Below are positions 5,313-64,000 of a stretch of 64,000 nt of DNA, piece by piece. Positions within the stretch are counted from its first letter, which is position 1, and each line of letters begins with the position of its first letter. A model generated the notes under the pieces. The model ran no database searches. It was not told the DNA's origin and worked only from the letters and a program-made list of their open reading frames with translations. Source of the stretch: Lingula anatina. Its lineage: Eukaryota; Animalia; Brachiopoda. The stretch is taken from positions 25,318,534-25,382,533 of the forward strand of contig CM120644.1 of NCBI GenBank assembly GCA_051362555.1, given 5' to 3'. The translations under genes were made by a program, and so were the position numbers.

Positions 5313-5374
<62 letters not shown>

Positions 5375-8300
5375 AGATGGAGGGAGCTGGTTGGCCTGGG
5401 GAGCCTGGGGTGATTGTTCTGCGCTGTGTGGGACAGGAACCACATCCAGAAACCGTACCTGTCATGACCCAAATGTGCCCAGTGAACAGGCCCTGTGTAC
5501 AGGTGGCGCCACCAACTCAACCCAGACAGCGACCTGCTTGGATCAAATTTGCCCACGTATTTAGAAATATTGAACATATTTTTGAACAAAAATATCACAT
5601 ATTACCTTCAGCCATAGATTTATAGATAATGGTACTATTTTAATATATCAAAGTGTCAGCTGTTAATATCTGAATATGAACTCATGTTATTTTAATAATA
5701 ATAATAATAATTTGTATTTTAAGATACTGTCTCCCTACTATTTTTTCTCTAGTTTTCAAATAAATCAGTTAATAATTAATTTCTGTTTCATATCCAAGCA
5801 CATATGTCAATGGTTATTTCAGATTGCAGCACAATGAACTGCCTAGGGCTGTGTATAGTGAGAGATCTACACTCCTACTGTGTCTGCCCTCACAGTGTGG
5901 AAGACAAAGTTGGCACAGTTGAACACTCAGCGCTCTACATAACACAGAGGTGATTCTTCCTGAGGAAAAGGATTTAACCACTGAAAATTTAATTATCATA
6001 TATTTCCCACTGTCCACAAATTATGAGTTGACATGTAAGATTGGCGTATAAAGTCTGACCCTGAAGCCAAATACTTCTCCAAACTTAATTTTCCAGTTGT
6101 TTCTCTTGGACTGGGTTCCCACACTTAGATCAATCTACCAGGATCGATCCATCTCCAAGGGGTTTCTTGCTAAATTGCTTTCAGCGGAAGAGGCTTTGAT
6201 GCCTGGCTCCCCCAGTGAGGCTGTTAATGATAATTAATTACCTGCTAGCAGTGTAAGTAGGCCTAACAGATATCTGTGCCGCTTAACTTGATTGCAGTTT
6301 AGCAAAAATCTCCTTGTAGATAGATCAATCCACAGTTAGGATGATAGAGACTGGGAATGGTCTCTAGGTATACTGGTCAGTGTTAGCTGTCTATCCCTGG
6401 AGCCAAGGTGTCCATACTTAATTGTCCAGTTGTTTCTCTAGGTGTACTGGTCAGTGTAAGCTGTCTGACCCTGGAGCCAAGGTGTCCATACTTAATTGTC
6501 CAGTTGTTTCTCTAGGTGTACTGGTCAGTGTAAGCTGTCTGACCCTGGAGCCAAGGTGTCCCTAGAGGCTGTGTGTTATCACTGTGACTCCATGGACTAC
6601 CTATGGGACCTCAACCCAGTGAACACCACAGTACAGGGACTGGACTGGAGCCAGGACACCACCACTGAGAGAACAGAGAGAGGACTGAGTATTAAACCAG
6701 GTGTTCTTATACCTGGGGAGCTCTACCAGGTCACAACACATGGTAAGTATTGTGACAACAGATGAATGAATTTTGCTAATTTGAAGATTTAAGATTTGCC
6801 CTTGGGACATACCCATATATTTAAGACTATCTTACACATTTTCTGCAGTGTTATGTCAATATCTTCAGTGTTGTCTACATCATGTCTTGTGTGTCTGTAG
6901 GTACAAGTCAGTCTGCTGGTACAGTGCTGTCTACATCATGTCATGTGTGTCTGTAGGTACAAGTCAGTCTGCTGGTACAGTGCTGTCTACATCATGTCAT
7001 GTGCGTCTGTAGGTACAAGTCAGTCTGCTGGTACAGGGCTGTCTACATCATGTCATGTGTGTCTGTAGGTACAAGTCAGTCTGCTGGTACAGTGCTGTCT
7101 ACATCATGTCATGTGTGTCTGTAGGTACAAGTCAGTCTGCTGGTACAGTGCTGTCTACATCATGTGTCATACAAATGGGGACCAGCCCTAGTCCAGGAAT
7201 ATGCACAGTTTCTCCTTCCACTGGCTTTGAGATTGTCACCAATTTCTCAGTGAATTGCTCTGGGTTCATTGACAGCACCAGTCAACTCCACTACAACTAC
7301 CATTTTTGGGACGGAGATCCTGCTACCAAGAATCAATCAGGTAACTGATCTGCAGTTTGTTGATGAATAGTTTAAAACAAATTTAGATAACAGAATACTG
7401 CAGCTTTAAATGACAAAACAGAACTCGAAATGGCAACAGTTAAAATTGTTAGGCAAGTCTATGTCATATAATCATAGGAATTGCATAACATGGTCTTTTG
7501 AAATCTCAACCAAACCTTAGCTGAATTTCTGAGTCTGATATGTATGCACATATGGAGATGAAGAAGCTTTCATGTATTACACCTGAAGCTCATAGTAATA
7601 TTCCAACAGTAAGGGGTGATCTGTTGGTATCCACCAATATTTGTGTAAAAATGTTCATATTTTCCTCAGGTGTCCTGTTAGGCAGCAGTTCTGGTGGTTA
7701 TATCCACATCTCTGCTCTGTCTGTGTCCCCAGCCAGTGAGAACAGTCAGGGGGAGGTCCGTGTGCATGTTGTCAATGAAGATGGTATGAAGACTGTGGTG
7801 ACTTCCACTGTCCAGGTATGTTAACATTATCTGTGGGGGTTAGAGTGTGTACATGTTGTCAATGACAATGGTATGAGGACTGGGGTGACTTCCACTGTCC
7901 AGGTAATGTTTACATTATCTGTTGGGGTTAGAGTCCCAGACAGCCTCAGTGATCTGGCCCACGTCTGGCCCAGATCTGGCAACGTCTGGCAATGTCTGGC
8001 AAAAGGTATGGCCCACGTATGGCTTGCCACATCTGGCCCAGTCCACATTTGCTCATGTTGCCAGATGGTTCCAGATCTGGCAATATCTGGCAAAGGTATG
8101 GCATGCCGGATGTGGACCAGATGTGGGCCAGATCAAATTCAAAGGGGCCAGATTAGGGCCAGACATGGACCACATATGGCCCAGATTGTTTTTTTGTTTT
8201 TTTTTTTTAATAATTATTTTATATTATTCAATAAGATTACTATAAAAAAAGACATACAAGATTCAAGATTCAAGTATTTATTCTGTGCTACAAACCTAAA

Positions 8301-11300
8301 CAAAATTATAACACATTATATCATCTTGCTGGCAACTTACATGTAACAAATTAAGGGCCACTCCTTGTTTTTTTGTACAAAACAATGTATGTTTGAAAAA
8401 AAAAAAAAAACTTCTCGCAAAAAGGCAAATATACAGACACTTAACAGGAGGAAATGTCACTTACATACATGTTAAGAAAAAAGTAATAACAACAAAAATT
8501 TTTTTTCAACACAAAGCTGCTCATCGAATCTGAATTAACACAAAAATACAAAAATTGTAATTAATTATGTATGTACATGGGGGGGGGGGGGGGGGGGGTT
8601 GAGGGGGAGAAATATTTTTGCACACCTTAACCTAAATAATGTTATACATTGTCATTTTTAAACTAATTCAAACATATCATTAATAATCATAATCACTAAT
8701 GAATATAGTTCTGTAATGAATAAATCTTGAATAATGAATGAAAAAACATTGTTTTTTAGATGACGGAGAGTTATAACAAAATTATAAATAACCATGCAGT
8801 AACTGTTTCAAATCAACTTGCATGCTGGCTACAGTACATACATGTAAACTCTGAAAAAAGAATTATGTATACCCCAGCACAGATATAGATGTACAGTTAA
8901 AAGAGAATTACATGTACACAAAAACAAACCCCAGTATCAATGCTTTTGAATTAAATCACATCACGAATCAAATCACTCAATGAATTGAACCAGTTTGCTA
9001 CGCTTGCGCTTTTTTGTATATCCATAACACTAAGAAATGATACATCCGGCTCCTTGACAAGCTTATAATTATTAAAGGAATTAACAATGGAACAAGTAAC
9101 TCTACCAAGTTAACAACAGTTCATTCAAATGTCAAGTCAAAACACAACATCCCTTCCTTTCATGGAGAGAAACGGTCCTTTCAAAATATGCTAATTGACA
9201 GTTCAGTCTTTAAAATGTCTTTTCAAGCATTTGCAGAATAGCATATGAACTCCAACTATTATTCTTTAAACCACACTGAAAATTCTCAAAACTAATCAAC
9301 TCATATCAAATCCCATGTCCTTTCACTACTACTGGTCTCTTCCTTTGCTTGCCTTTACGTCACATTCAAATGTTCCCTTCACTTTTAAAGGTTTCTCAGA
9401 CATGTATGAATAATACTGTTTGTTTTCTGGGCCTCCACAAGAGCCACATTTATTTTTCTTGGATTTCAGCATTCTCCATGTATTTTCATCAATGATATTA
9501 CAATATGCACCTGAATCTGGTAATACACTGAGATTAACGCCTCCTCTATTTCCACCATGTCTTCTGTGTATATTGCATTGGTTCCCACACCAAATGTATA
9601 TGCACTCCTGGATTATCATGTTCAAAGCTGTCATTTACATGAATAATAGTTTCAGTTTTGCAGACTTTTGCAAAGTGATCCAACGTTCCATGTTTTCTCA
9701 GTCGGGGAGTTTCTACTTCGTTTTTCATGTTTAAACTCGTAATGTTAAGACTGGCTTGGTTTGTCAAATGACTTCGGTTTCATCATACTCACAGTTTCTG
9801 GTGTTCCAATTTCATTTAAAGCGTTAACTGTATATTCATGTTTCTCACCTGTGTTTGGGAGAGTCCTGAAAATATCTTGTACAGTAACTGTACACCTGTC
9901 CCTGCTGAATACAACATAAGCGCGCGTCTCCTCTGACATGTATTTTTAATTTTCTATCTTTGTACATTATTCATGCCGTCCGTTGGGTCTGAAACGATCA
10001 ATCCTTTTCCGTCAGCGAAGAGTTTAAAACTGTCTAGCCATCGCGTGTGACCCTAATGTCTCCGGACTTCTGTACGTTTCGAAATTCGTAATTTCATATT
10101 TTCCTCCATTTTCTCAAAGAAAGTTGGCTCACAGTTTTGCACTAGTGTTAATCCTCGTCGCCAGTGTTGATGCCTTAGAAATAAATCGCATCACGAATCA
10201 AATCACTCAACGAATTGTATCAGTTTGATACGCTTGTGTTTTTTTTCATATCCATAACTCTAAGAAACGCTACATCCGGGTCCTTGACCGGCTTATCATA
10301 AAAAGCGGAATTTTACAACAGCGGAACGAGTAGTTCAAAAAAGTTTTAGAAAGTGAATTCATTCAAATGTCAAGTCAAATTAAACAAACAGCACATTTAT
10401 GAGGGGACTTTGAAAAAAAAAAGAGAGAGAGAGAAATTAAATCAAAATTTATCAAATGATGTCAGTTTAATGCATTCAGCTCACTGGTCAATAAAAAATA
10501 AATAAATAGAAAATAAAAATTGAAAATGAAAGTACCATATCTGGCCCAAGTCTGGGCAGCATCTGGCAAAATGTGGCATAAATGCCAGAATTTGCCAGAC
10601 TTGGACCAGATCTGGTAAGTGTCTGGCAAAATCTGGCCCAGATATTGCCAGACGTTGCCAGATCTGGGCCAGACGTGGGCCAGATTACTGAGGCTGTCTG
10701 GGGTGTGTACATGTTGTCAATGACAATGGTTTAAGGACTGTGGTGACTTCCACTGTCCAGGTATGTTTATATTATCTGTGGGGGTTAGAGTGTGTACATG
10801 TTGTCAATGACAATGGTATGCAGGCATGAGATTTTTCCGTCTTTTGGCGGAATTCCGACTTTTTTCCTTCAAAAATGTCATTTTTTATATCATTGCAAAT
10901 CCGTTGAGAAAATTTCAGGGGGGGGGGGGGGGTAGGGGTACCCTTCCCTTCCCCGGCGAGACCCTTCACTCATCGGCACTCGCATGTTTTCAATTTTGAC
11001 CTTGCCGAAAAACGTTACCAACCGTACATATATATCGATTCTGGGACGCACTGTTATCAAGGGGGAAACTTTTGCGACATCTATACGACATTTATACAGT
11101 CATTGAATGCAATTACCGTAAAACGGCCTGTATCCTGTTCATATAGCGCTGCGCGGTTTTTTCCATGTGGTATCGTGTGTCGCTTTTGCGTTTTGGAAAA
11201 TGAAGCTACTTGAGGCCGGTGTAAACGACGATAGAGTCAGAGAAATCGATAAAGGGATTAAGAATAAATTCAGATAGGTTGTTTTACTAGATCGGTTGTG

Positions 11301-14300
11301 TATATGTCGTATGAAGACATTGAACTTGCATTTGAAAATTTTCATGTTTTGAGTTGTCGACTTGTCGCTCGTTTAAAATTGTGCCCAACTGTTGAATCAC
11401 TAAATCTACTGATCGTCTGATGTGATGACGGTGTTGTCACTAGTAATAGTATAAACGATAGTTGTACTAGATCTATGACATGGTTTAAACGTACATCAAC
11501 AGAATTAAATGCTGAATTAGAGATCAGTAACGTTCTCACTCAGTCACTGGTGTGTGTGTGTGTGTCACTGAGTGTGTGTGTGTGTGTGTTACTGTATTAT
11601 AGTGTATACTGTCAATCAAACTATTCCTACATGTATAGGCCTAGCCTACGTGTGCGTTAAGATTTTTCTTCGAAAAATCTTTCAGACTTTTTTATCAAAA
11701 CCAAATCTCATGCCTGGGTATGAGGACTGTGGTGACTTCCACTGTCCAGGTATGTTTATATTATCTGTGGGGGTTAGAGTGTGTACATGTTGTCAATGAC
11801 AATGGTTTAAGGACTGTGGTGACTTCCACTGTCCAGGTATGTTTATATTATCTGTGGGGGTTAGAGTGTGTACATGTTGTCAATGACTATGGTATGAGGA
11901 CTGTGGTGACTTCCACTGTCCATGTATGTTTATATTATCTGTGGGGGTTAGAGTGTGTACATGTTGTCAATGACAATGGTATGAGGACTGTGGTGACTTC
12001 CACTGTCCAGGTATGTTTATATTATCTGTGGGGGTTAGAGTGTGTACATGTTGTCAATGACAATGGTATGAGGACTGTGGTGACTTCCACTGTCCAGGTA
12101 TGTTTATATTATCTGTGGGGGTTAGAGTGTGTACATGTTGTCAATGACTATGGTATGAGGACTGTGGTGACTTCCACTGTCCAGGTATGTTTATATTATC
12201 TGTGGGGGTTAGAGTGTGTACATGTTGTCAATGACAATGGTATGAAGACTGTGGTGACTTCCACTGTCCAGGTATGTTTATATTATCTGTGGGGGTTAGA
12301 GTGTGTACATGTTGTCAATGACAATGGTTTAAGGACTGTGGTGACTTCCACTGTCCATGTATATTTATATTATCTGTGGGGGTTAGAGTGTGTACATGTT
12401 GTCAATGACAATGGTTTAAGGACTATGGTGACTTCCACTGTCCAGGTATGTTTATATTATCTGTGGGGGTTAGAGTGTGTACATGTTGTCAATGACAATG
12501 GTTTAAGGACTGTGGTGACTTCCACTGTCCAGGTATGTTTATATTATCTGTGGGGGTTAGAGTGTGTACATGTTGTCAATGACAATGGTTTAAGGACTAT
12601 GGTGACTTCCACTGTCCAGGTATGTTTACATTGAATTTGCATTCTTTGCCAAACACTTTCAAACCTACTGGACTTTTGGTACTTTTTTAAAGCAAGTATT
12701 TGCTAAAGGTGGAGGGGGGGGGGGGTGGAGTAAATAAGGCTGGAATATGGAACTGAGTAGGTATGGATGTAGCACTCTTTTCTTCTGTCCATTTATTTAT
12801 ATATCATATCATATCATTTCATATCATATCATATCATATCATATATACATTTTCTTTTTAAGGTCTTTCCATTAAGTGACCATCCTGATTTTGTAGACAG
12901 TGATGTTGGCACATATCTAGAGGAGATAACAGGGGATCAGAACAGTGTCTTGTGGACTGCTGTGAGGGAAGGCGACCAGACAGGTGCTGTCTATTTATAT
13001 AACTGTAAACTTTTAACACTTGGGTTGTCATTATGTGCAGACACAGATGTGCCTGTACATATAGCCGTCATCTGCGTCTGTCGTCGCCGTCGTTGCCGTC
13101 GTTGCCGTCGTCGCCGTGCACTTTTACCGATAACACGATAAGTGGAAAACTGTTTTTTCTTTTGGCTTGAAACTTACAGAAATGATAAATATATGCAGGT
13201 CAAGTTCGAAAATCAGCATGATCGGGTCACTTATAGGGAATTTATGCTGTTTTTTCACTTTTTTCAGCATATAGGCAGCACCGATAACACCATAAATGGA
13301 AAACCATTTAACCTTTTGGCTTGAAACTTACAGAACTGATGAATATTCATAATACGCAGGTCAAGTTTGAAAATCAGCATGATTGGGTCATTTTGAGTGA
13401 ATTTAGGCTATTTTTTCACTTTTTTTCAGCATTTTTGCAACACTGATAACACAATAAATGAAAAGCTGTTTTACCCTTTGGCTTGAAACTTACAGAACTG
13501 TTAAATATTCATAATACTCAGGTCAAGTTCGAAAATCAGCATGATCGGGTCACTTATAGGGAATTTATGCTGTTTTTTCACTTTTTTCAGCATATATACA
13601 GCACCGATAACACGATAAGTGGAAAACCGTTTAACCTTTTGGCTTGCAACCTAAGAACTGATGAATATTCATAATACGCAGGACAAATTTGAAAATCAGG
13701 GTGATTGGGTCATTTTTAGTGAATTTAGGCTATTTTTTTCTCTTTTTTCAGCATATATGCAGCACCGATAACACAATAAATGAAAAGCTGTTTTACCCTT
13801 TGGCTTGAAACTTACAGAACTGATGAATATTTATAATACGCAGGTCAAGTTTGAAAATCAGCATGATTGGGTCATTTTTATGTACAGGCACAGATGTGTC
13901 TGTACATATAGCCGTCATCTGCGTCTGTCGCCGTCGCCGTAGTTGCCGTCGCCGTGCACTTTTACCGATAACACGATAAGTGGAAAACTGTTTTTTCTTT
14001 TGGCTTGAAACTTACAGAACTGATGAATATTCATAATACGCAGGTCAAGTTCGAAAATCAGCATGATCGGGTCACTTATAGGGAATTTATGCTGTTTTTT
14101 CACTTTTTTCAGCATATATGCAGCACTGATAACACGATAAGTGGAAAACCGTTTAACCTTTTGGCTTGAAACTTACAGAACTGATAAATATTCATAATAC
14201 GCAGGTCAAGTTTGAAAATCAGCATGATTGGGTCATTTATAGTGAATTTAGGCTATTTTTTCACTTTTTTTCAGCATTTTTGCAATACCGATAACACAAT

Positions 14301-17300
14301 AAATGAGAAGCTGTTTTACCCTTTGGCCTGAAACTTACAGAACTGATAAATATTCATAATACACAGGTCGAGTTTGAAAATCAGCATGATTGGGCCACTT
14401 TTATGGAAGTTTTTTTCACTTTTTTTCAGCATATATGCAACACTGATAACACAATATAAGAAAAACAGATAGGCCAATTGTCATAATACTCATAGGAGTG
14501 GCCAATCTTACTAAAACGCAGGTTGAGTTGGAAAATCAGCATAATCGGTCCATTATTTTAGAAGTTATGCTGTTTTTTCACATTTCCTCACATTCAATTC
14601 TTAGGCATGTTAACAGTCTCATTATTGAACTAATAAGATATGTAAATGTGTTTGTTTCGCATTTCCTGCATCTTTACAACATTGTTAGTTGATTTTGTGA
14701 AAATGATAGTAATCTTGTTATTGTGTATTGTGTAATAAAGTGTCAAAAATGGAAATAAACACATATCATTGCAGTTTGTCAGATTCAATCATCCACTATG
14801 TTCAGAATCTCAGAATGGAGGAAATTGGACATATAACACTGTCTTATTGATATTTTCCCCATCCCATCAATTTCCTTAGTTGGTAATATAAAAATGGCAG
14901 TAAACTGTTTATTATGTTTTATGTTAAAAATTGTTAAAAATGGAAAAAAAACATTTCAGAACAGTGATGTCTTGTTTACATTTTGGCATTTTCAAGTTGT
15001 GACTTTGAAGTTCCATGGGCCTCAAGACCTTTGCTAGTCACATTTTCTGAATATCCATAATACTAATATTTTATTATTAAAAGTGATGGTCATTATGCTG
15101 TTAAACGTTATGTAATATTGCATCAAAATTTGAAAAAAAAAAAAACTATTTTTGGCACTGCTCCCATGATGACCATTTAAGAAAAACCATGTCACTTACT
15201 GTTCTCAAACTTACAGGAAAGAAACATGGTACTAAAATATAGCTTCAGTAGGCAATGCAGTCTGTTTGATAATTCTTACCGCCAGTTAAACAGTTTTTTT
15301 TTTTGTGAAAATATAATTTTTCACACATTGGCATTTTCAAGGTGTGACTTTGAAGTTCCACGGGCTTGAAGACCCAAGCAGTCACATTTTCTGAAAAGCC
15401 ATGATACGTATATTTTATTATTAAAAATTGACAGTCATTATGCCATTTATAACTATATATATAATTTTATAATTTTATAATTTTAACATTTATAATTATA
15501 ACCATTATGTAATATGGCATCAGAATAGAAGAAAATGCTGCTGCAATGATGACCATTATGGGAAAACCGTGTTACTTATGGTTGCCAAACTTTCAAAAAA
15601 AAAATACAGGGGCCGGTTTCACAAAGCAGTAGTTAGTTAGAACAACTAACTACTGAACTACCTCGCTAACGAGCAAACTTAGCGATTTTCGAGGGGTGTT
15701 TCACGAAGCAGTCGTTAACTCATCGCTAAGTTCAGTCGTAAAGTTCGGTCGTTAGTTCTCTCGTTACTCGCCGTAGTCTCGAAACCGTCTGCCGGAAGTG
15801 GAACTCTTGCGTAAAAGTGTCACGAAAGCACTAACTCTCCAATTTTTGGTGGGTGGAAATGCATAAGAACGTCTGCTTTGAGGTCGTCGTAAAGGATCTC
15901 CACCACCTTTTTGCCGCTCTTTTTGTCACAGCTAGGCGCAACCTCTCGTAAACTGCATCATCGTGTGTATATTCTAATAGATTCTGCCTTTCATGAAAAC
16001 GTCGTAGTCTACGTTGCCGTCTGGCGGTACGGATAGCAAGAAAAGTAGCCGCCATATTGGATACAAAGACAAACGACAGACAACGGTAACTAAGCAACCT
16101 TTTTATTTCACTCATTACGCATGCGTACGATGAAACTCTAGAGTTAGCGACTGGTCTGACCAGTCGTTAAATATCCAAGGCAACAACGAGACAATAACGA
16201 GCGAGAGAACTAGCGACTGCTTCGTGAAACGGCACTATAACTAGCGATAGGCTAACTACTGATCGCTAACTAACTACTGCTTTGTGAAACCGGCCCCAGG
16301 ACTAAAATGCAGCCTGAGTTGAAAAAGCAGTCTAATTGGCTTCTTTTTCTGGAAGTTATACATTTTCAAAGTGTGAACTTGTTACACATTTCACTTACAT
16401 TGGTATTACCTGTTGAGCATAATTAAAATTTGATGGTGAATTTGCAGTTTAACATAATGTACTTTTGCATCAGAATTGACAGTAGCCTATTTTGTGCATA
16501 GTTATTTCCTGTTTTTTGTCTGTACATTTGACAGCTTTGCTGCCTTGTTAGTGAATTTAGGCTATTTTTTTCACTTTTTTTCGGCATTTTTGCAACATCG
16601 ATAACACAGTAAATGAAAAGCTGTTTTATGGAAGTTAAGTTGTTTTTTCACTTTTTTTCAGCATATATGCAACACTGATAACACAATATAAGAAAAACAG
16701 ATAGGCCAATTTTCATTATACTCACAGGAGTGGCCAATCTTACTAAAACTCAGGTTGAGTTGGAAAATCAGCATAATCGGTCCATTATTTTAGAAGTTAT
16801 GCTGTTTTTTCACATTTCCTCACATTCAATTCTTAGGCATGTTAACAGTCTCATTATTGAACTAATAAGATACGTAAATGTGTTTGTTTGGCATTTCCTG
16901 CATCTTTACAACATTGTTAGTTGATTTTGTAAAAATGATGAATTAGATATATAAAAGTGTTGTTTTGACATTTTCTGGTTCTTAACAATATTGTTAGTTG
17001 ATTATATAAAAATGACGGTAAACCTGTTATCGTGCATTGTGTAATAAAGTATCATAAATGGAAAGGAACTCATCATTGCAGTTTGTCAGATCCAATCATT
17101 CACTGTGTTCAGAATCTGTGAATGGAACAAATTGGACATTTAAAATTGTTCTATTGATATTTTTCCTATGTCAACAATTTTTCTAGATCATTTAAAAATG
17201 ACAGTAAATTGATTATTTTGTTTTATGTAAAAAGGTGTTGAAAATGGAAAGAAAATCATTTCAGTACAGTTATCTCTTGTTTACATTTTGGTATTTTGAA

Positions 17301-19539
17301 TGTGTGACTCTGAACTTCCATGGTCTTGAAGACCTTCCCATATCACATTTTCTGAATATCCATGATGCTTTTATTTTTTTATAAAAAATTGATGGTCATT
17401 ATGCTGTTAAGTATTGTGTTATATTGCATGAAAGTTGAAGAAACACGTATTTTGGACACTGCTGCCAGGATAGCGATTAAGGGAAAACCATGTTACTTAT
17501 GATACTAAAATTTACTAAAAAGTTTCATAAGACTGAAGTGCAGCTTGTGTTGGAAAACCAGTGTGATTGTTTTCTGTTTTGGAAGCAATGCAGTTCTATA
17601 GAGTGAACTATGGTGGAATAAATGTATATGGCAGTATATTAATTCAGGGTCAGAAAGTAATTTGCTTAATTGATTTTCAAGTGGCCATTAAATGAGATTA
17701 CATATAACACACGTTCATAAAGTAATTTGCTTAATTAATTTTCAAGTGGCCATTAAATGAGATTACATAAAACACACGATGAGATCTCATTGTAAAGTCC
17801 CCTGGGTATATCTCTCTTAACTGTGTCACATAATTAGGAATCAGTGATTATTGTGCAGGTAAATGTTAGTCATGCTAGTAATTACACAGCTAGATTTAAA
17901 GTTTGAATGGCAGCTTTCATTGGAATTTTTTGTTATGTTTTATTTTACTTTTTTTTTAATTATTTATCAAACACTAGCATCTTCAAGATATCACTTTCAA
18001 CTCCCATCCACCAGAAGCACTGTGCATTTTCTGTTTTTCCACATAAGGAGTTGTGTTGGTTTTTATGTCTTTAAACATTGTGTAATTATATTATTTTATG
18101 CACTGTCATCTTTTTTCACATATTGGGATTTTCATTATGTGAATTTGAACTCTCACATATGGTCCTGAAACTGTAATCTTATTGACCATGTTATTCTGTT
18201 GTACAATTTGTGAAATTTTATCTTTCACATACTGGAATTTTCATTGTGGGACTTATAACTCCCAAGGACATGTAACATTTAACTTTATTGATACTACCTG
18301 TTGTGCAATATTTGCAACTTGACTGTTCTTTTTGGCAAATAATTAATTTTTTTTTTCTAAAAAGTTTTTTTTTTTTTGTTATAATCTTAAGAAATTATTA
18401 CAAAGTATAGCCATCTATGGAGGTCACATGGTCTGATGAAAAGTTCAGATATCAGAATAATAGTTATGACTGCCCTTTTTGTAGTAAAACAAAATATATT
18501 ATATTTCTGTGAGTTGTTTACACTGTTTAAACTCAAGTTGGATGATTCATATCATGGTTATGCAGCTAGACTGAATGGCAGCTTTAGTGGAATATTTTTG
18601 TAATTTTTTCTTTAATTTTTAATTTTTCAAACTGGTATTTTCAAGTTGTTTTCACTTTTCAGCATATATGCAACACTGTAAACACATTTCAAGGAAAACT
18701 GATAGGCCTGTTGTCATGAAACTCACTGGGGTGAACGATCTTACTAATTTGAGGTCAAGTTCGAAAAGCGGCATGATCAGGCCACTATTTTAGTAATTAT
18801 GCTTTTTTTCCCACTTTTCAGCATATATGCAACACTATAAACACAATATAAGGAAAACAAATAGGCTAATTGTCATTAAACTCAGAGGAGTGGTCAATGC
18901 TGCTAAAACACAGGTTGAGTTTGAAAAACAGCATAATCGTGCCATTATTTTAGAAGTTATTTTGTTTTTTCATATTTCCTCAGATTCAATTCTTAGTCAT
19001 GTTAACAGTTTCATTAGTTAACTAATAAGATACGTAAAAATGTTTGTTTGACATTTCCTGCATCTTTACAAATTGTTAGTTGATTTTGTAAAAATAATGG
19101 TAAACTTATTATCGTGTATTGTGTAATAAAGTTTCAAAAATGGAAATAAACTCATGTCATAGCAGTTTGTCAGATTCAATCATTCACTATGTTCAGAATC
19201 TCAGAATAGAAGCAATTGGACATTTAACACTTACAGGAAAGAAACATGCAATTAAAATACAGCCTCAGTAGGCAGTGCATTCTGTTTGGTTATTCTTACT
19301 GCCAGTTCAACAGTTTTTTTGTGAAAATTTAATTTTTCACAAGATATGCTTGAAGACCCGTGCTAGTCACATTTTCTGAAAATCCATGATACGTATATTT
19401 TATTTTTAAAAATTGACGGTCTTTATGCTGTTAACCATTATGTAATATTGCATCAGAATAGAAGAAAACACAATTTTGGGTGCTGCTGCCATGATGACCA
19501 TTATGGGAAAACCATGTTACTTATGATTGCCAAACTTTC

Positions 19540-19570
<31 letters not shown>

Positions 19571-43944: not shown

Positions 43945-43950
43945 AATAAA
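43945..43950 (+). promoter_or_regulatory. Candidate polyadenylation signal of the PKD1-like gene
   Basis: First AATAAA noticed, ~530 nt after the stop; untested. Confidence 0.3.
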
Positions 43951-46907: not shown

Positions 46908-47090
46908 TCAGTCCACTTTCTCCAAGACAGACGGGAAATGGACAATCCTCAGCTCATTGCCATAGTCACTGATGATAACAGAGTTGCCAACGGTGACCAG
47001 ATTTCTAACAAAGACTGAGTTGTCCCAGTTTCCAAGTCTGACTGTGCGCAAGTGCTGTCCCTTGGAGAGATCCCACAGTACAATACAACC
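46908..47090 (-). CDS. SCAP: SCAP terminal coding exon
   Basis: tttccag|[20 protein letters not shown]...[22 protein letters not shown]. Confidence 0.92.
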   Translation of the reverse strand, partial: GCIVLWDLSKGQHLRTVRLGNWDNSVFVRNLVTVGNSVIISDYGNELRIVHFPSVLEKVD

Positions 47091-53000: not shown

Positions 53001-56000
53001 ATTCTCACTGTTGGACTCGTCTGTTTTGTACCTTTAATGTCTGATCTTGACTGGCAGTTACGACACGCCCCCCTGCCATCTCCAGGATGTTGATTGGCTG
53101 TTGATGTGCCGTTACCGTGACAATATGTGAACAGTGTATGATGTCATCCCATGGTTTCATCTCTGTGTTGGCCATAGTGGAACCTAGCTGTCTGCTGGCT
53201 GCACGGTGAGATAAACCTGAAGTTAGCACATAGCTACAGAATAATGGCTGGGTAAAGCCAATAATAAGATGCTCTCATTAAAATGTAGCCAAGGGCTGTT
53301 TCATATCAAGAGCACAGGTAGACAATTATCTTGTGAACCTGTGACCTCTCCACTCACATACACTGTTCATAGTCATTCAGTCACCACTCCTCATAGGAGC
53401 TAGACAGGACTTCTATATCTGAGGTTAATTTGACTTTATTTGTTTCAATCTGTTTATATGTTTATATCATTATTTGTTAGTTCTTTTAATTTTCTGTTCA
53501 ATCTGTTTGTACAATATAATTATTTATATTTTCAGTCAACATTGGTTCCAGTGAATAAAACTGGAAAAACCAATAGTATCGTAGTTAATAACTGACCATC
53601 GAGATAGACCTGAAGTCATCACACTTCATTAGAAAGATGAAAAATACTGTAACACCTTGAATGAGCAAGACTGTTGCCACCTTTTTAACAAATCAATGTT
53701 AATGCAGGTCATAAAATACAGGAACAACACTAAGATTCACAATCCTGATACTGACCCCTGTTGTGGAGTACGGAAGGCGGAGTGGTCGAGGAGGGGACAA
53801 CGGGAGAATGCGTGTATGTTTCCAACTCCAAGAAATCTAGAGTACCATCCAGTCTGGCCGCTATCACTCTGGGAAATAAAAGGAACAAAAATTCACGTAA
53901 AAATGTCAAAGCCAGTTGGCTCATCTTGCTTCATAAAAGTGGATTTAAACACAGTTCTGTTGCATGGAACACAGAGAAGGCAGTGAACATATGTCCTAGT
54001 TAATTAACTACCTGTTACTGGTTTACTTAAGGCCTCCTGCTAATTCTGGCACAATTCTGAGTTCCAAGTTGTATTTTTTAAAGTATTCACAACAACAACA
54101 CATTCCTCTCCCTTCATAAAGCACTCCCAGACTTGATGTGTAGACAGACATCCACCTGGAGGACACAGCAACACACTGGTGGCAGCGGTGGGATACTTAC
54201 TTCTTTCCCTGGAAACATATCCCAGTAACACCAGACCTGCTATCTTCATATAGACACTTCAGGCTGCCTGACAATACATCCCAGATACTTACTTCTTTCC
54301 TTGGAAACATATCCCAGTAACACCAGACCTGCTACCTTTATATAGACACTTTATACTACCTGACAATACATCCCAGATACTTACTTCTTTCCCTGGAAAC
54401 ATATCCCAGTAACACCAGACCTGCTGCCTTCATACAGACACTTCAGGCTGCCTGACAATACATCCCAGATACTTACTTCTTTCCTTGGAAACATATCCCA
54501 GTAACACCAGACCTGCTGCCTTCATACAGACACTTCAGGCTGCCTGACAATACATCCCAGATACTTACTTCTTTCCCTGGAAACATATCCCAGTAACACC
54601 AGACCTGCTGCCTTCATACAGACACTTCAGGCTGCCTGACAATACACCCCAGATACTTACTTCTTTCCCTGGAAACATATCCCAGTAACACCAGACCTGC
54701 TACCTTCATACAGACACTTCAGGCTGCCTGACAATACATCCCAGATACTTACTTCTTTCCCTGGAAACATATCCCAGTAACACCAGACCTGCTACCTTCA
54801 TATAGACACTTCAGGCTGCCTGACAGCGCATCCCAGAACTAGAACAAAACACATGGACTTTATGTCAGAAAGATATCTCAGATTTAGACTGTGTATGTTA
54901 CTAAAGCTGTTCTGCAAAGCTTTGAATTCAGTACCTGATGCTGAAGCCACTGAATTTTTTAAAATGCTCTCAGAAACTAATAAAACATTCAATTGTACAT
55001 TAAACAAAAACTGAAAATTGAAATATTTCAACTGCAGGCACACCCTCCACTCTGTCCACATTTACCTCTATTTTGCCATTTCCACAACCAGCTACAATCA
55101 AGTTGTCCTGTGACTCCAGACACCAGATGGCAGGAGCTGACCCTCTCACAGCAAGACAGTCTGGTGTCACAGCCTCTACTGGGCCATCATTGGTGCCTAA
55201 ACTTCTACTTCTGTACCTCCCCTGATCTCCAGGGCGCTGTGTCGTGGCCTCCATGTCTCCCAGAGATCTCCTGTGCTGCTCCTTCATCTGTTCGTACCTC
55301 CTGCTCTCCACCTGCAGCTGCTGGTGCTCTCGGTAATACGGGGAAAACTTGGAGGCAAAGTCATAGCCAGGAGCAATGGACGCAATGCTGCCTGGGGACT
55401 GGGGATTGGGGCTGTCTTGTTTAGATCTTCTGTTTAGAAGACTTGAAAAGTTAGTGTCAATGGTTCCTGTAAGATCAGGAATGCTGGTAAACCTGTCCTG
55501 TCTGCGGTGGATGACAAACTGGGTGGAAACGGGGTCTTGTGCCACTGGTTTGTGACCATCTCGTCTTTTCACAATGTCAGATGGTTCTGGTTTTAGCAGT
55601 GGTGCCTCATGGTACTCGGCATATAAGTCCATGTCGCTGTCATTGATGTTTCTACCTGGTATAGGAGTGCGATCGTCAGGGGGAGTTATCCTGGAAAAGT
55701 GTGCCCAACACATTATGTTTAACTTTTGTTTCTATTTTAGTATAAACATTTGTCTCACAGGTAGTACACGTATTTATGGCTTGCAAGTGAGACGCAAGTT
55801 CAGTTATTGTACAGTATGAAGCGCCAGTTGTGGGGTATGTAAATAAAACAGTGAAGCAGTTTCTGGGTATGACTCACCATTTTCTGTGTATGACAGTGAG
55901 GCACTCGCCAGAGGTGGTGTCCCAGACACGTAACTGTCCCCCCAGACAGCAACTGATGAGCAGGGGGCCGTCTGTCACCATACACTCTATCTCCTGAAAT

Positions 56001-58677
56001 CAACAGTTCTCCGTCAATAATGTCTACATATTTGTAATTTAATGGAAGAACAATCATTCTGATAAGGTGAGTGGCTGACTCAAATTGTAACCAGGAGAGG
56101 AAATAAAAATTCTGATTAAAGTATTATTAGTACTAGTAAGTACACTTTCTGTACCTGGTTATGGCCTATCAGCCTCAGTGGCAGTGCCTCTTTGATCATC
56201 TTAAAGTAAGGGCTTGCCTTGGTTCTCTTCTTTGACTTACTCCAAGAACTTCTCCACTTGGCATAGTTCCTAGAACACACACATCTGAAACACAGACAGC
56301 ATGGAGAAATTATATAGGAATAATAAGATAAAAGTATGAACAGACATATTAGTACATGCTTTTATTGCAAGTGCTTATAACTTTGACACATCACTAAGAC
56401 TTACTTTGATGATGTTATCAGAAGATGAGGAATTTTATGAATTGATACAACCTGATGCTTTCTTTTATTAGATAGTATCATTTGAAAATGGCTTAAAGTC
56501 CAACATATCTTCAACACATCTTACCTGTACAATATCATCATGAAGTAGATACCTACCTGTACAATATCATCATGAAGTAGATACCTACCTGTATAATATC
56601 ATCATGAAGTAGATACCTACCTGTATAATATCATCATGAAGTAGATACCTACCTGTATAATATCATCATGAAGTAGATACCTACCTGTACAATATCATCA
56701 TGAAGTAGATACCTACCTGTATAATATCATCATGAAGTAGATACCTACCTGTACAATATCATCATGAAGTAGATACCTACCTGTACAATATCATCATGAA
56801 GTAGATACCTACCTGTACAATATCATCATGAAGTAGATACCTACCTGTACAATATCATCATGAAGTAGATACCTACCTGTACAATATCATCATGAAGTAG
56901 ATACCTACCTGTACAATATCATCATGAAGTAGATACCTACCTGTATAATATCATCATGAAGTAGATACCTACCTGTACAATATCATCATGAAGTAGATAC
57001 CTACCTGTATAATATCATCATGAAGTAGATACCTACCTGTATAATATCATCATGAAGTAGATACCCAGGAAGACACTCATGACACCCAGGATGACTGTAA
57101 TCACCAGTTCTCTGGTAGAGTGAGCATATAGTGGCAGGGGCCCCTGCACATGACTCTGAGGAACCAAGTTCTCTCCATTGAAGTACGTCTTGGCCTTAAT
57201 GAGGCGCTCCTCCATCTCTTCCTGCTCCTTGGGGTGACGCATCCGTATGGCAGCCTCGGGATCAGCCACAATGGACAGATGGACGGAGGGAAGAATGCTC
57301 ACATAACTGAATGTATCAATGTGAGTATATGAATTCAAAATTAAAAATAATAATTAACAATGTTATTAAGATATCACGGCAACAACTAAGGTTTACACTG
57401 TTTTCTTTGTCTTACTAGATGTAGCATGTATATTGAACAGAAATATCATTCTGTTTAAAATAGAAGATTGAGTTCCACCCCTACTTATATTAATATAATT
57501 CTATTCAAGATGGAGGACTGAAGTTACCTTCCAGATGTACTTATGTTATACATCTCCAGCAGAGAGGGCCAGTGTTGGTACGATAACTTCCGCCACATCT
57601 GGCCATCAGAGTGAACTAACTGGGACGCCACCTGGCTACCTCCAACTTCAAAAGAGCTCTCCTTCATTCCCCTTGTGGAGTAGTCACCAGGGTCATCTGT
57701 GTAGGCATGATAGTCAACCTCACGCCCGATAAATTTCTCCACATTTTGAGGCAGACTGTAACTCTGACCTTGACTGTGACCTTGACCTGGAAAGGTGCTG
57801 GCGTTGTGTTTGACAAGGTGTTCTACGAGTCCACTCTTGTACACTATCAATGCTATCCAGATCACTGTGCTGACCTACAACACACAAAGATACAGATCCA
57901 TAGCAAAACTTTCTAAGTCAAGTTGTTATACATTAGGCGAAGCATTTTTCCATGATAACAATGCCTGTACCAGTCTAAATACCATGATAACTCTCTGTAC
58001 CAAACTAACACAATATCTGTACCAGTCTACATACCATGATAACTCTCTGTACCAAACTAACACAATATCTGTACCAGTCTACATACCATGATAACTCTCT
58101 GTACCAAACTAACACAATATCTGTACCAGTCTACATACCATGATAACTCTCTGTACCAAACTAACACAATATCTGTACCAGTCTACATACCATGATAACT
58201 CTCTGTACCAAACTAACACAATATCTGTACCAGTCTACATACCATGATAACTCTCTGTACCAAACTAACACAATATCTGTACCAGTCTACATACCATGAT
58301 AACTCTCTGTACCAAACTAACACAATATCTGTACCAGTCTACATACCATGATAACTCTCTGTACCACCCTGGTTCTTGCCCAGAAGTAAATAAGGCGTAT
58401 CCTGCGTGGCAGATCACTGTCTGGGTCTGTATACATATAGATAAACTCGTCCTGGCCGTAGGGGGATGGCGGTGGTGTGGGGGGACGGCCAATACTTCTC
58501 TGTGGGGTGTGGAAGGCAGGGGCTGATGTAGACTTGGGGAGACTAGAATGTGATCTTGTGGGCTGAAGTGAAAACAAGCATTATTTCATTCTCATTATCT
58601 CTGAATTTCTACAATGAATATATTTTTCTTTAAAATTTTAGGTTTCCTGATAAATACTGAATGAGTTGACAAAACAG

Positions 58678-58716
<39 letters not shown>

Positions 58717-61700
58717 CGTACAGGTGCCAAAGCCAATATGTGTGTATGTGTGTGTGCAAGAGCCAGTGTGCGTGTGTGCGTGTGTGTGTGTGTGTGTGTT
58801 ATGGGGATGAGTGTGCAGGGATCATGGAGGGATAAGCTAACCTGCTGCATCAACTGAGGTCCTTTAAAACAGTCCATCACAGGGCAGTGAAGTAACATCC
58901 CTGGGGCTGGGCTGGGCGTGGCACTGGGCGTGACACTGGGCGTGGTTCGCTCCTTGGGGCTCATCTGCAAGTGCTGCTTGTGGAGGTCATTCAGCTGAAA
59001 GAACAATAGTAGCCATGGTTACCTGTGACAACAAAACCTGTAACCATGGTAATCCTTGGCATCAAAATGTGATGATATACACTTCAGGGTCTGAGAGTGA
59101 AATTGTGTTACATCTGCCAAGATCCTAAAAGCTACTATTTATGTAATGTATTCGTAGAGACCCTTAAAGATCACGATAAGGTACTTGCCAAGTGATCATG
59201 GAAGGAAGCTGTGTAAGAATTTAGCTAGAATTTACAAAGAATTTGTATAGAAATTCTGCAGCTGTTTTACTTTGAAAAGTTACAAATAAAAATAATGTTT
59301 ATATCTGAGTGTTTTATTAGTAAATGTTAAGATAGCTCAGTGGATATATCTAGAGGTGGTTTAATGTATACTACATTAATGTTAAGACAGCTCAGTGGAT
59401 ATATCTAGAGGTGGTTTAATGTACACTACATTAATGTTAAGACAGCTCAGTAGATATATCTAGAGGTGGTTTAATGTATACTACATTAATGTTAAGACAG
59501 CTCAGTAGATATATCTAGAGGTGGTTTAGTGTATACTACATTAATGTTAAGACAGCTCAGTGGATATATCTAGAGGTGGTTTAATGTATACTACATTAAT
59601 GTTAAGACAGCTCAGTAGATATATCTAGAGGTGGTTTAATGTATACTACACAAAGCACACTGTACCTCCATTCTGCGGATATCAATGGACAAGACGGTAA
59701 CAAAGAACCCCATCTGGAGGAAGAAATCTGTGAACAGACCAACCACAGCAAACAGACAGAACTCCTGGATGGCAGGGATGAAGGTGAAGAAACCTCCCAC
59801 CACGATCAGTAACTCCAGACAGAAGTTCTTGGTGATGGACCAGCTCTCTTTACTAAGACCTGGAACATATGGAAAATGGCAGTTTAATATCAAGGATTCA
59901 CAATTCTTGGAGCTTTCTTTAGGTCTCTTTATGTCTTTCTTTCTTTCATTCATTCATTTTTCCAAGTTCCACCATTATACAAAAACAAAAGATTCCTATA
60001 ACAATAATCTCTTTCCAGACAAACATGATCATAAATGATCTTAAACAATACATAAAGAACCAGTCAGCTTGCCGAGGGCAGTTCTATTTTCTCCCTTTCC
60101 TTACTTACTTACTTTCTTTCTTTCTATTACCCCCCCACACACACACACACACACAAGTCCCATCAGTACACAACATAAGATTCATGTAGAGACAAGCACA
60201 ATCATTGTGTACTGTATAGTTCTGTTCGATGCAGTTAAATCACACAAAGGGAATATAGAAATGTGATTTTTGTGATGATAAAATTAATCATCTGCAAGTT
60301 GGATAATTTTGTCCATTGGAAAGATTGAGACAATACATCCTATCCTCATGATCCACTCCATGGAGGGCAGAGTACCTACCTTGAGCCACGCGTATCTTGA
60401 CATCCAGATCTATAGGAGTGGAGACCACAGACTTGGTGAGTACGAGGACATTTTCCAGGCCTATCACCACCACCAGGTATGGGAAGATTTCTCTGAAAGT
60501 CAGGAAAACAAGGAAATCATAATTTGTGTCACTGGATAACATTTTGTAGTCCATCATGAACATGTCTTTAAATGTTCTCAAAATAAGTATACAGCATAAG
60601 AAGTACAAATTTTGAGAAACTTTCAAGAAATACTTACACCATTGTTGATTCTTATATTCAATGAAAGAAACTAACCCTCTGTTAATACTGGGATGGAGAC
60701 CAAAGAATGTACATATGGACAGTGACATGAGTAAAGACGCCAGGACCATAGCTACAGCACTGAATGCCAGACCCCACTTGGACTTCACCATCTGAATCTT
60801 ACCTGGAATATAACAGAATAGACTTAGCTTAAGATATATCTGAATCTTACCTGGAAATGATAAAATACACTTAGCTATAAAATTTTATATCTAATTATAG
60901 TGGAGCAGACTTATGTTAAATATTTTACCTGGAATAGGGTGGAACAAACTCAGCTTTAAATTTTATACCTAATTACAGTGGAGTAGACTTAGGCTTTAAA
61001 TTTTATTCCAAATTACAGTGGAGTAGACTTAGGCTTTAAATTTTATAGCTAATTACAGTGGAGTAGACTTAGGCTTTAAATTTTATACCTAATTACAGTG
61101 GAGTAGACTTAGGCTTTAAATTTTATACCTAATTACAGTGGAGTAGACTTAGGCTTTAAATTTTATACCTAATTACAGTGGAGTTGACTTAGGCTTTAAA
61201 TTTTATACCTAATTACAGTGGAGTAGACTTAGGCTTTAAATTTTATACCTAATTACAGTGGAGTAGACTTAGGCTTTAAATTTTATACCTAATTACAGTG
61301 GAGTAGACTTAGGCTTTAAATTTTATACCTAATTACAGTGGAGTAGACTTAGGCTTTAAATTTCACACGGAAGGCTTAGATTTTAGATTCCATATTAATT
61401 ATAGAAAGACAAACCAAGTTTCTGGATTTCATATCATATTTTCAGTGGAACAGACTTAACCTTGCAAATGAAGGAAGACTCACTTACAATACTTAGATTT
61501 TTCATCACACAAACTCGGATAATTTACTCTCATTCAGTATACAAGGCAGTTTATCAATATAAGTTGCTGCAATTGTTAATTAGATTGTAATTTGGTTCTA
61601 GTATACTAAACAGAGTATGGTTGATAAACATACAAAGTACTTACACACAGAGAAGTAGAGGTATAAAAACAGCACCACATAGGCCACCACTAGAGGGATA

Positions 61701-62533
61701 TATTCCATGAGGAAGTTGTGGACATCTTTGAAGTAGATGTTCTCCACAGTGTCTGCGGCTGTGGAGTTAAAGCTGGTCGCACTGTGGGGGTACAACTGGT
61801 GAAGCTTCTCCTTCAGAGCACTGAAGAAACTGAAAGAGAAAGAAAGAGAATCCTCATAACTGACATAGCAAGGTGAGTATGGTGTCTCTGCCACTGCATT
61901 GATGAAACTTAACTTAGGCAAAGATAAAAATGAAGACAATATTATTTCACACATTTTCTTAAATACATATAATTATTACATAAATGTTTACAGATGAGGT
62001 TTTTAAAACCATCAATCAGTGACATATATTTGATTATTACAAGAATTATTAACATGATTATTATTGACCAGTTTCTTTAGACACCATGATTTCATAAAAC
62101 TCCCACTAAAAACTTGTCCCCACCTTTCATTGTAAGACTGCAGCATGATAGTGACAGCATATGAGATGACACGCTGACGATTCCTGAGGAAATATCTGGA
62201 TATCCCCGTCTCTATCCAGGCCATGCCAAACAGCAACTCTGACAGGAAAGAAGACCAAATTTTAATTTTCTTTTTTGGATTAAATTGTTAAATTCCAGTA
62301 AGTATATCAATTTCTTTCATCAAGTTACCCCTTGATAAATATCACCTAACTGTGAACACTTCCCTGATGAAGTAATGTCTTTTAATTCTGTAAACCTTCT
62401 TGTCATCAACTATTACTAGTCTACTAAAGGTAATGTCTCCATGTTCTCACCTCTCAATGGTGGTACCATCTCCATGTTGCTGGCACCATAATTCTTGTAA
62501 ATGGTGTTGATGATTTCCCCATCGGACTGAAAC
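46908..62533 (-). CDS. SCAP: Sterol regulatory element-binding protein cleavage-activating protein, 5' exons outside window
   Basis: 20 phase-consistent minus-strand exons: 62451-62533, 62124-62238, 61645-61829, 60676-60802, 60380-60492, 59666-59859, 58842-58994, 58347-58562, 57528-57874, 57037-57306, 56155-56284, 55878-55993, 55066-55690, 54753-54838, 53756-53868, 53032-53216, 52373-52453, 51161-51373, 50417-50479, 46908-47090. Sterol-sensing domain motifs [67 protein letters not shown]; WD40 repeats; C-terminus PSVLEKVD*. Confidence 0.96.
47074..50240 (-). repeat. Acceptor-spanning tandem repeat of the SCAP terminal exon, 57 bp x ~56
   Basis: Minus-strand unit TTAGGGTTAATGTATAATATTCTGTGTCCCATGTTTCCAG|GGTTGTATTGTACTGTG; the last copy continues into the exon. 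Confidence 0.96.
50417..55993 (-). CDS. SCAP: SCAP WD40-domain exons
   Basis: [25 protein letters not shown]; [21 protein letters not shown]; [21 protein letters not shown]; [17 protein letters not shown]; [20 protein letters not shown]. Confidence 0.93.
50838..51221 (-). repeat. Donor-spanning tandem repeat, 97-103 bp x4
   Basis: CAGATG|GTAAGTT at 51160 (true), 51057, 50960, 50857. Confidence 0.9.
51348..52102 (-). repeat. Acceptor-spanning tandem repeat, 58 bp x13
   Basis: GATTCTCAG|GGTGCTCCTCTAGC; two copies have CAG mutated to CAT. Confidence 0.93.
52382..52888 (-). repeat. Acceptor plus near-whole-exon tandem repeat, 102 bp x5 (in frame)
   Basis: CTATTACAG|GTCTACAGG at 52454, 52556, 52658, 52760, 52862. 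Confidence 0.93.
54192..54837 (-). repeat. Near-whole-exon plus donor tandem repeat, 92 bp x7
   Basis: GGAAAGAA|GTAAGTAT at 54752 (true) and every 92 bp down to 54200. Confidence 0.93.
56520..57065 (-). repeat. Donor-spanning tandem repeat, 32 bp x17
   Basis: ATCTACTTCATGATGATATT(A/G)TACAG|GTAGGT; true donor at 57036. Confidence 0.93.
57965..58365 (-). repeat. Donor-spanning tandem repeat, 52 bp x8
   Basis: GTACAGAGAGTTATCATG|GTATGT; true donor at 58346. Confidence 0.93.
58679..58799. repeat. Interrupted (TG)n microsatellite
   Basis: Direct reading. Confidence 0.9.
59323..59650. repeat. Intronic 55-bp minisatellite x6, starting ~15 bp from a SCAP donor
   Basis: TTAATGTTAAGACAGCTCAGT(G/A)GATATATCTAGAGGTGGTTTAATGTATACTACA. 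Confidence 0.9.
59666..61829 (-). CDS. SCAP: SCAP sterol-sensing domain exons (61645-61829, 60676-60802, 60380-60492, 59666-59859)
   Basis: [20 protein letters not shown] (YIYF-type motif), [33 protein letters not shown]. Confidence 0.95.
60880..61363. repeat. Intronic 40-bp minisatellite, ~11 copies
   Basis: TTTTATACCTAATTACAGTGGAGTAGACTTAGGCTTTAAA. Confidence 0.9.
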
Positions 62534-62954: not shown

Positions 62955-64000
62955 TCCTACCTTGCTAGGTCTCTGTTCCACAGATTGGCAGGAGATAAGA
63001 CCAGACAGCTATATTATCATATCAGTATCCTACCTTGCTAGGTCTCTATTCCACAGGTTAGCAGGAGATAAGACCAGACAGCTATATTATCATATCAGTA
63101 TCCTACCTTGCTAGGTCTCTATTCCACAGGTTGGCAGGAGATAAGACCAGACAGCTATATTATCATATCAGTATCCTACTTCTCCAGGTCTCTATTCCAC
63201 AGGTTGGCAGGAGATAAGACCAGACAGCTATATTATCATATCAGTATCCTACCTTGCTAGGTCTCTATTCCACAGGTTAGCAGGAGATAAGACCAGACAG
63301 CTATATTATCATATCAGTATCCTACCTTGCTAGGTCTCTATTCCACAGGTTAGCAGGAGATAAGACCAGACAGCTATATTATCATATCAGTATCCTACCT
63401 TGCTAGGTCTCTATTCCACAGGTTAGCAGGAGATAAGACCAGACAGCTATATTATCATATCAGTATCCTACCTTGCTAGGTCTCTATTCCACAGGTTAGC
63501 AGGAGATAAGACCAGACAGCTATATTATCATATCAGTATCCTACCTTGCTAGGTCTCTATTCCACAGGTTAGCAGGAGATAAGACCAGACAGCTATATTA
63601 TCATATCAGTATCCTACCTTGCTAGGTCTCTGTTCCACAGATTGGCAGGAGATAAGACCAGACAGCTATATTATCATATCAGTATCCTACCTTGCTAGGT
63701 CTCTATTCCACAGGTTAGCAGGAGATAAGACCAGACAGCTATATTATCATATCAGTATCCTACCTTGCTAGGTCTCTATTCCACAGGTTAGCAGGAGATA
63801 AGACCAGACAGCTATATTATCATATCAGTATCCTACCTTGCTAGGTCTCTATTCCACAGGTTAGCAGGAGATAAGACCAGACAGCTATATTATCATATCA
63901 GTATCCTACCTTGCTAGGTCTCTATTCCACAGGTTAGCAGGAGATAAGACCAGACAGCTATATTATCATATCAGTATCCTACCTTGCTAGGTCTCTATTC
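62955..64000 (-). repeat. Donor-spanning tandem repeat of an upstream SCAP exon, 73 bp x >=15, runs off window
   Basis: Unit encodes CLVLSPANLWNRDLA(R)|GTAGG, resembling SCAP loop-1 CLLLSPGNFW..D..RF; phase 2 matches exon 62451-62533. Confidence 0.9.

Follow-up and report, generated by a model that had tools for sequence, protein, structure and literature searches.

Introduction

Minisatellite-like duplications of intron-exon boundaries were described in amphioxus and termed mirages. In the available parts of that report they occur in Adh3 and in the globin genes BflGb6 and BflGb9, at both intron ends, measure 10-160 bp, vary between haplotypes and are harmless to splicing, their mechanism is called unclear, and in the globins the cluster boundaries are excluded from homogenisation (PMC3087553); troponin C and PGBD5 of amphioxus are also given as carrying mirages in the accessible text of a second paper (PMC3902484). 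In human F7, as far as the available text goes, the first unit of a 37-bp variable number tandem repeat in intron 7 spans the exon-intron boundary, and the most upstream donor is used while the identical downstream donor pseudo-sites are silent (PMC1557585). Internal tandem repeats at exon-intron boundaries are also reported in human segmental-duplication genes (PMC2812944, in excerpt), and the Rogers model derives intron gain from tandem duplication (as cited in the available portion of PMC3087553). Here we analyse a stretch of 64,000 nucleotides, free of Ns, from the brachiopod Lingula anatina (contig CM120644.1; hereafter the window), in which two convergent genes, PKD1L2-like on the plus strand and SCAP on the minus strand, carry tandem arrays across their exon-intron junctions. 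These arrays exceed chance at the junctions and are very probably mirage minisatellites.

The Lingula arrays are like amphioxus mirages in that they span their own boundary, affect donors and acceptors, have locus-specific units and a variable copy number, and leave splicing largely normal, while the host is a brachiopod and not a chordate; beyond the amphioxus cases, their density was measured, their enrichment tested and a recurrent origin found at one junction. SCAP donors 51161 and 57037 resemble human F7 since the most upstream donor is used, whereas F7 is one locus affected on the donor side only and Lingula also has acceptor arrays, in which splicing goes to the most downstream of up to 56 copies. 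In Lingula, in the human cases of PMC2812944 and in the Rogers model alike, minisatellites expand across exon-intron boundaries, but the latter two, so far as the available text of the sources indicates, alter gene structure or create introns whereas the Lingula arrays only lengthen existing introns.

A preliminary description of this stretch, made from the letters alone, knew of no account of this as a genome-wide system. The structure itself is on record, being that of the amphioxus mirages and human F7 (PMC3087553, PMC3902484 and PMC1557585, each in its available parts), and the remark stood for the genome-wide scale: a literature search that did not extend to supplements and subscription papers found neither a genome-wide mirage survey nor a report from Lingula or any brachiopod. 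The word 'tandem' is absent from the main text of PMC13121700, and both its uses in PMC4595640 concern collagen genes. The type of structure is thus already known; added here are variants shared between intronic copies and the exon alleles of other animals, in contrast with the amphioxus globin boundaries excluded from homogenisation (PMC3087553, available parts).

Results

Junction arrays in the window

Gene models were built from tblastn matches and RNA joints and gave 96 junctions in total, each with AG/GT. Tandem Repeats Finder (TRF) recovered all 16 arrays that the preliminary description had named, and analysis of their anatomy indicated that each unit consists of the gene's own exon edge, the splice site and the neighbouring intron, as had been claimed. 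Acceptors 6516, 7125, 29456, 35602, 40463, 41355, 47090, 51373 and 52453 and donors 7815 and 41589 had been placed exactly as in the gene models; the SCAP donors given as 51160, 54752, 57036 and 58346 were correct as sites, the numbers being those of the first intron base, and the exons end at 51161, 54753, 57037 and 58347. The array assigned to an exon beyond position 64000 was confirmed by RNA loose ends at 62535 (4+5 reads), which show that its unit is the end of that off-window exon.

By TRF 16 of the 96 junctions carry an array, in agreement with the earlier estimate of one in six. A scan for nearby direct repeats made blind to the exons, which returned zero hits in three local shuffles, raised the count to 20 of 96 by adding junctions 20040, 28909, 40189 and 60802, so that the estimate was an undercount; donor 36247 had also been missed. 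The 20 in-window array junctions comprise 8 donors and 12 acceptors, and both boundary types are therefore affected (Table 1).

Units are 20-111 bp long and specific to their locus. The longest cross-match among 24 arrays was 12 bp, and within the window the junction units matched only at their own locus and none lay inside a mobile element; a dispersed repeat family was accordingly rejected, as the preliminary description had proposed. Copies of an array are 91-99% alike, and 136 of 142 decoys have AG or GT intact; several arrays are flanked by remnants, and copies of one array share variants that the functional copy does not have. The weakest listed array, at acceptor 29456, includes 7 exon bases only and keeps AG in none of its three aligned copies. 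The array of donor 7815 is a single array in three parts (7760-7934, approximately 10700-10820 and 11717-12632), separated by a pair of inserts that have terminal inverted repeats and target duplications of 2 and 6 bp and are probably non-autonomous DNA transposons. The terminal inverted repeats of the first insert (7935-10702) are 65 nt long and 97% complementary.

Enrichment at junctions

For the null model each array was collapsed to one unit and a duplication of the same length was placed uniformly, with only mRNA-preserving placements allowed. The count of 25 intragenic TRF arrays omits periods below 20, the arrays of off-window exons (1-2158, 62955-64000), the coding array 33064-34224 and the intergenic arrays at 44304, 44800 and 46255, and merges 11717-12632 and 13967-14456 with their neighbours. 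Sixteen of these 25 span a junction against 4.08 expected (3.9-fold, P 5.5e-8). With GC-matched placement, the composition-matched check that the preliminary description had called for, 5.02 were expected (3.2-fold, P 7e-7); an effect of GC or composition was therefore rejected. Masking of transposon-rich blocks left 16/22 against 5.66 expected, and gene by gene the TRF figures were 9/14 against 1.8 and 7/11 against 3.5 (P 0.02). On the sensitive, exon-blind list 20 of 37 arrays span a junction against 7.35 expected, and masking of the interiors of large introns leaves 20 of 25, where 8.0 are expected (2.5-fold, P 5e-7). When all introns were capped at 300 or 200 bp, with all events kept, the TRF list still gave P 0.004 and 0.046, respectively. 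Since the window had been picked for its richness in arrays, a test outside it matters.

New duplications and polymorphism in other animals

Eight of 21 listed sequencing runs, four of DNA and four of RNA (the latter under the same species label), were aligned to the SCAP stretch 50300-62900. Contigs of the four other DNA runs (X2, X3, X6 and X10) revealed eight tandem duplications not present in the window. Every one of them spans a junction, where 3.1 would be expected to (P 4e-4), and none lies in an intron interior. They affect acceptors 56284 (twice), 60492 and 55993 and donors 55878, 57528, 59666 and 60676. Acceptor 56284 was duplicated with different breakpoints, as a 52-bp unit in X2, X3 and X6 and as an 80-bp unit in X10. 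In five of the eight, depth at the joint is near background, so that copy number is low, a pattern that a bias acting at birth would produce; across runs joint depths range from 25 to 5736, the latter at donor 59666 in X10 (about 45 nearby).

From animal to animal the arrays differ in whether they occur, in copy number and in breakpoints, and when five genomes are taken together 14 of the 38 junctions in the SCAP stretch have an array in one or more of them. A 909-bp contig of X6 crosses donor 58347 free of the array, with a skip of 374 bases that is no multiple of 52, and X10 has shorter array forms at 57958, 59266 and 60855; the array-free alleles at donor 58347 still hold a decayed repeat of the exon end. 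The junction enrichment, and with it a locally recurring process, was thus borne out against both nulls and in independent samples, and the comparison across individuals that had been suggested revealed polymorphic arrays.

Two further observations concern this stretch. Within 59323-59675 the window's 55-bp array begins 16 bp past donor 59666 and does not include it, while the unit of about 81 bp that X10 has over these bases, at very high depth, does. At 60668-60721 X2 and X10 have extra letters next to the donor-side duplication of this exon; these letters look like the 40-bp array at its acceptor side, a likeness that hints at an older event, either of the whole exon or by template switch.

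Splicing of the arrays

RNA evidence came from four runs, 6-25% of each, and covers the SCAP stretch, with none for the PKD gene. At this low depth it is mainly the exon-proximal copy that is spliced: reads on the functional copy numbered 10+1 at donor 51161, 23+5+1 at acceptor 51373 and 4+1+2 at donor 57037, and at acceptor 47090 the last of about 56 copies is used (12 loose ends at 50416, agreement 1; 3 more in X15). Among the joints listed there were none for 52453, 54753 or 58347. The expectation that the spliceosome ignores the decoys therefore held for the most part.

Other copies received fourteen reads in the alignment (4 at 50857, 4 at 51720 and 6 at 52861), each carrying the variant of its copy. 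Their sides of 55, 24 and 69 letters fall short of the exon portion of the unit, which measures 60, 25 and 72, respectively, and the reads can thus be alleles of the true exon; no more than one X12 read enters intronic unit sequence (50925). These minor joints fit exon alleles rather than decoy use, with low-level decoy use possible. In-frame insertions from the 47090 decoys were considered and rejected, as the most upstream decoy, if used, would lead to an early stop. Within the limited depth no new intron or exon made from copies was seen, the RNA joints following the protein-supported structure. In X18, an oligo-dT library, reads run through the intronic copies of 50837-51220 and none crosses the spliced joint; unspliced RNA, retention or DNA carried over into that sample may account for this.

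Breakpoints and shared variants

The position of the junction within the unit is consistent with a uniform distribution (exon share 0.09-0.92; 24 units pooled, Kolmogorov-Smirnov p 0.57, uniform not rejected), 6 of 9 non-spanning TRF arrays lie 15-132 bp from an exon, and no exon-to-exon unit was found. It is thus unlikely that breaks fell at the junction itself or that spliced mRNA was the template: a break exactly at the splice site was rejected by the uniform junction position, and a spliced-RNA template because exon is never joined to exon in the units. Of the mechanisms put forward in the preliminary description, splice-site-targeted duplication and RNA-templated repair from spliced mRNA were consequently not upheld, while pausing or R-loops are compatible if they act over a broader zone than the junction itself. 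The bias looks exon-proximal and filtered by selection rather than set by a cut at the splice site. Microhomology, judged by eye, is present at the breakpoints of some arrays, where it is inseparable from decayed older copies, and is zero in the joints of the new duplications. In all, the observation of the preliminary description is confirmed and its interpretation partly supported.

RNA variants were also compared with the array copies. Of the eight variants listed in the exon parts of units, six, all synonymous, recur in intronic copies of the window. Such sharing occurs in four of the four arrays that have such variants, two of the shared variants being held by just 1/12 and 1/4 copies. 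Copy variants in SCAP are synonymous in 15 of 25 cases against approximately 28% expected (P 8e-4). Because intronic copies share variants with the exon alleles of other animals, we infer that arrays and exon ends were exchanged between homologues.

Coordinates, gene models and other repeats

Table 1. Positions of the genes and tandem arrays in the window.
Feature	Positions	Strand	Remarks
PKD1L2-like gene	2803..43411	+	29 modelled exons
SCAP gene	46909..62533	-	20 exons inside window, 5' part past 64000
28-bp array	1..2158	+	donor-like site in the phase exon 2803 requires; not counted
74-bp array, acceptor 6516	6361..6561	+	46 exon + 28 intron bases
56-bp array, acceptor 7125	6866..7165	+	TRF, anatomy
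87-bp array, donor 7815	7760..12632	+	split by two inserts (7935-10702, 10821-11716)
Decayed ~91-bp duplicate, acceptor 20040	19925..20058	+	exon-blind scan
Decayed ~108-bp duplicate, acceptor 28909	28815..28981	+	exon-blind scan
80-bp array reaching acceptor 29456	29239..29462	+	degenerate copies
71-bp array, acceptor 35602	35188..35653	+	TRF, anatomy
Decayed 20-bp array, donor 36247	36240..36321	+	TRF
Decayed ~111-bp duplicate across donor 40189	40082..40259	+	exon-blind scan
86-bp duplicate, acceptor 40463	40359..40523	+	TRF, anatomy
72-bp array, acceptor 41355	41101..41400	+	TRF, anatomy
66-bp array, donor 41589	41534..42310	+	TRF, anatomy
57-bp array, ~56 copies, acceptor 47090 of last SCAP exon	47074..50246	-	TRF, RNA
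~103-bp array, donor 51161	50837..51220	-	TRF, RNA
58-bp array, acceptor 51373	51349..52103	-	TRF, RNA
102-bp array, acceptor 52453	52382..52888	-	TRF, RNA
92-bp array, donor 54753	54192..54837	-	unit holds almost all of the 86-bp exon
32-bp array, donor 57037	56522..57065	-	TRF, RNA
52-bp array, donor 58347	57958..58366	-	array-free alleles in X6 and X10
48-bp duplicate, acceptor 60802	60789..61363	-	grades via decayed copies into 40-bp intronic array 60880-61363
73-bp array, donor of SCAP exon past window	62955..64000	-	TRF; RNA loose ends

The protein matches of its genes indicated that the DNA of the window is Lingula-like. In the PKD1L2-like gene exons 1-7 are open, as are exons 8-29 (1970 aa), and all splice sites are AG/GT; the gene is identical to protein P0001 over 364 aa (100%), and the long exon 30233-30730 matches a partial polycystin-1-like-2 protein of records named for Lingula anatina at 100% identity and a paralogue at 95%. 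The SCAP model is stop-free over 1198 aa and 43-48% identical to spiralian SCAPs, exon 59666-59857 being SCAP, and most introns in the aligned stretch are backed by RNA joints; a homologue search with one variable SCAP exon gave no match. In the PKD1L2-like model the phases clash within 12863-20111, where exon 7 (end 12983) meets exon 8 (start 20040); it may be that an exon is missing, that a different donor is used or that the gene is broken. A repeat-filled intron of 7 kb begins about 40 bp past the proposed exon 7 donor. The region 22540-22720 is exon-like, with an AG acceptor, a reading that resembles a REJ region and an in-frame stop; superfluous to the model, it is possibly a dead exon.

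Several further repeats were recorded. The array at 1..2158 probably belongs, to judge from its sequence, to the donor of an exon that lies upstream of the window. At 33064-34224 a 48-bp array of 24 copies lies in frame in a coding exon and encodes a 16-aa repeat in a PKD1L2-like linker; paralogue P0002 does not align to it. The intronic array 37088-39876 (37 bp, 72 copies), counted as non-junction, has a decayed edge that trails back to donor 37087 and may be a mirage that drifted from its junction. The microsatellites TA (5318-5376) and ATATC (12801-12844) adjoin acceptors 5377 and 12863, respectively, and do not span them. Between the two 3' ends, at 44800-45268, lies a 35-bp array of 13 copies, 40 bp of which match a dispersed repeat at 16502 and 19800.

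Discussion

The origin that we tentatively prefer, and which is quite possible, is recombinational repair that starts in well-matched exons and slips at their edge between heterozygous homologues. Short local tandem duplications of 20-120 bp straddling an exon edge are likely born more often in or near exons than in intron interiors: in a heterozygous genome (1.6% for Lingula in the available text of PMC4595640) exons would be the best-matched stretches between homologues, repair would therefore start there and would slip on running into the mismatched intron. Unequal exchange between the homologues would likely then amplify the arrays. Duplications lying entirely within an exon would be purged by selection unless they stay in frame in a loose linker, as at 33064-34224, junction-straddling ones would remain at low cost, and decayed remnants may seed new duplications at the same junction.

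A number of results weigh against this interpretation. The window is single and was picked for array richness. On the sensitive list the excess falls to 1.24-fold (P 0.11) with introns capped at 300 bp and to 1.0-fold at 200 bp, and the median collapsed intron is just 294 bp. Among the new duplications the close samples alone give 3/3 on junctions (P 0.05), and aligned contigs need 85% likeness, which favours exon-containing joints; long intronic pieces align even from the most diverged run. The nominal P of 4e-6 for the shared variants is overstated because variants are linked in pairs, and the 6/8 holds among the RNA variants listed. Of these, 51181 is weakly supported and 51214 stems from intronic array reads of X18, for which reason it was rejected as an exon allele; variants present in all copies could be merely the ancestral state. 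Copy variants in the PKD gene show no synonymous excess (13/43, P 0.43). Finally, no de novo duplications were seen, and birth and survival bias are hence not directly separated.

Survival bias alone, with duplications arising anywhere, those in intron interiors being lost by deletion or transposon insertion and exon-anchored arrays shielded and re-seeded by their remnants, is a live alternative, though in our judgement a less likely one. Deletions cannot cross the functional copy, which is the proposed shield, and the loss of enrichment under capping, the decayed remnants at junctions (retained even by the array-free alleles of donor 58347) and the duplication at 60492, which has almost the same breakpoints in X2 as in the more diverged X10 and is hence old, all agree with it. 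However, the low-copy polymorphic duplications are also all on junctions, and capping over-corrects, since it removes intron-interior territory and keeps interior events; when events and territory are both masked the 2.5-fold excess remains. Damage coupled to splicing or transcription is likewise a live alternative, about as likely or slightly less so; in this reading DNA near splice sites would break through polymerase pausing, R-loops or exon chromatin, and its repair would leave a short duplication. The excess survives GC matching, donors and acceptors are affected alike and the same junction is hit again, as such damage would predict; yet breakpoints are not clustered at the junction, the lack of exon-to-exon units speaks against spliced RNA as template, and damage by itself does not explain the variants shared with other alleles.

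It is very improbable that selection keeps the arrays to tune splicing or give alternative isoforms. The intact dinucleotides and the few reads on other copies would suit such a role, but intact dinucleotides are expected at the observed likeness of copies, those reads fit alleles of the true exon, the most upstream 47090 decoy leads to an early stop, and arrays come and go among animals. That an assembler repeated the exon edges is scarcely credible: copy numbers in the window do rest on assembly and not on raw long reads, but array copies carry their own variants, the donor 7815 array holds two inserted elements with target duplications, independent DNA runs have raised array depth (800-1340 at 56194-57035 in X10 against about 40) and arrays of their own, and X18 RNA reads cross the unit-to-unit join of the 51161 array (loose end 51120).

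Mirages were earlier described from a handful of amphioxus genes. In a brachiopod they occur at high density, vary between animals and recur, and since population DNA and RNA of this animal are public, the question of birth against survival bias becomes directly testable. The arrays mislead read mapping and annotation, as reads of exon alleles placed on decoy copies mimic alternative splicing, and they are natural experiments on a spliceosome choosing one of up to 56 near-identical sites. It is conceivable, though we think it somewhat unlikely, that highly heterozygous marine invertebrates have a genome-wide process of exon-edge duplication, with a polymorphic array on a large share of junctions and functional exon ends recycled with intronic copies by unequal exchange, so that coding termini would evolve as a minisatellite. 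If exon ends do exchange with intronic copies, the arrays would locally supply coding variation, lengthen introns and provide material for intron gain.

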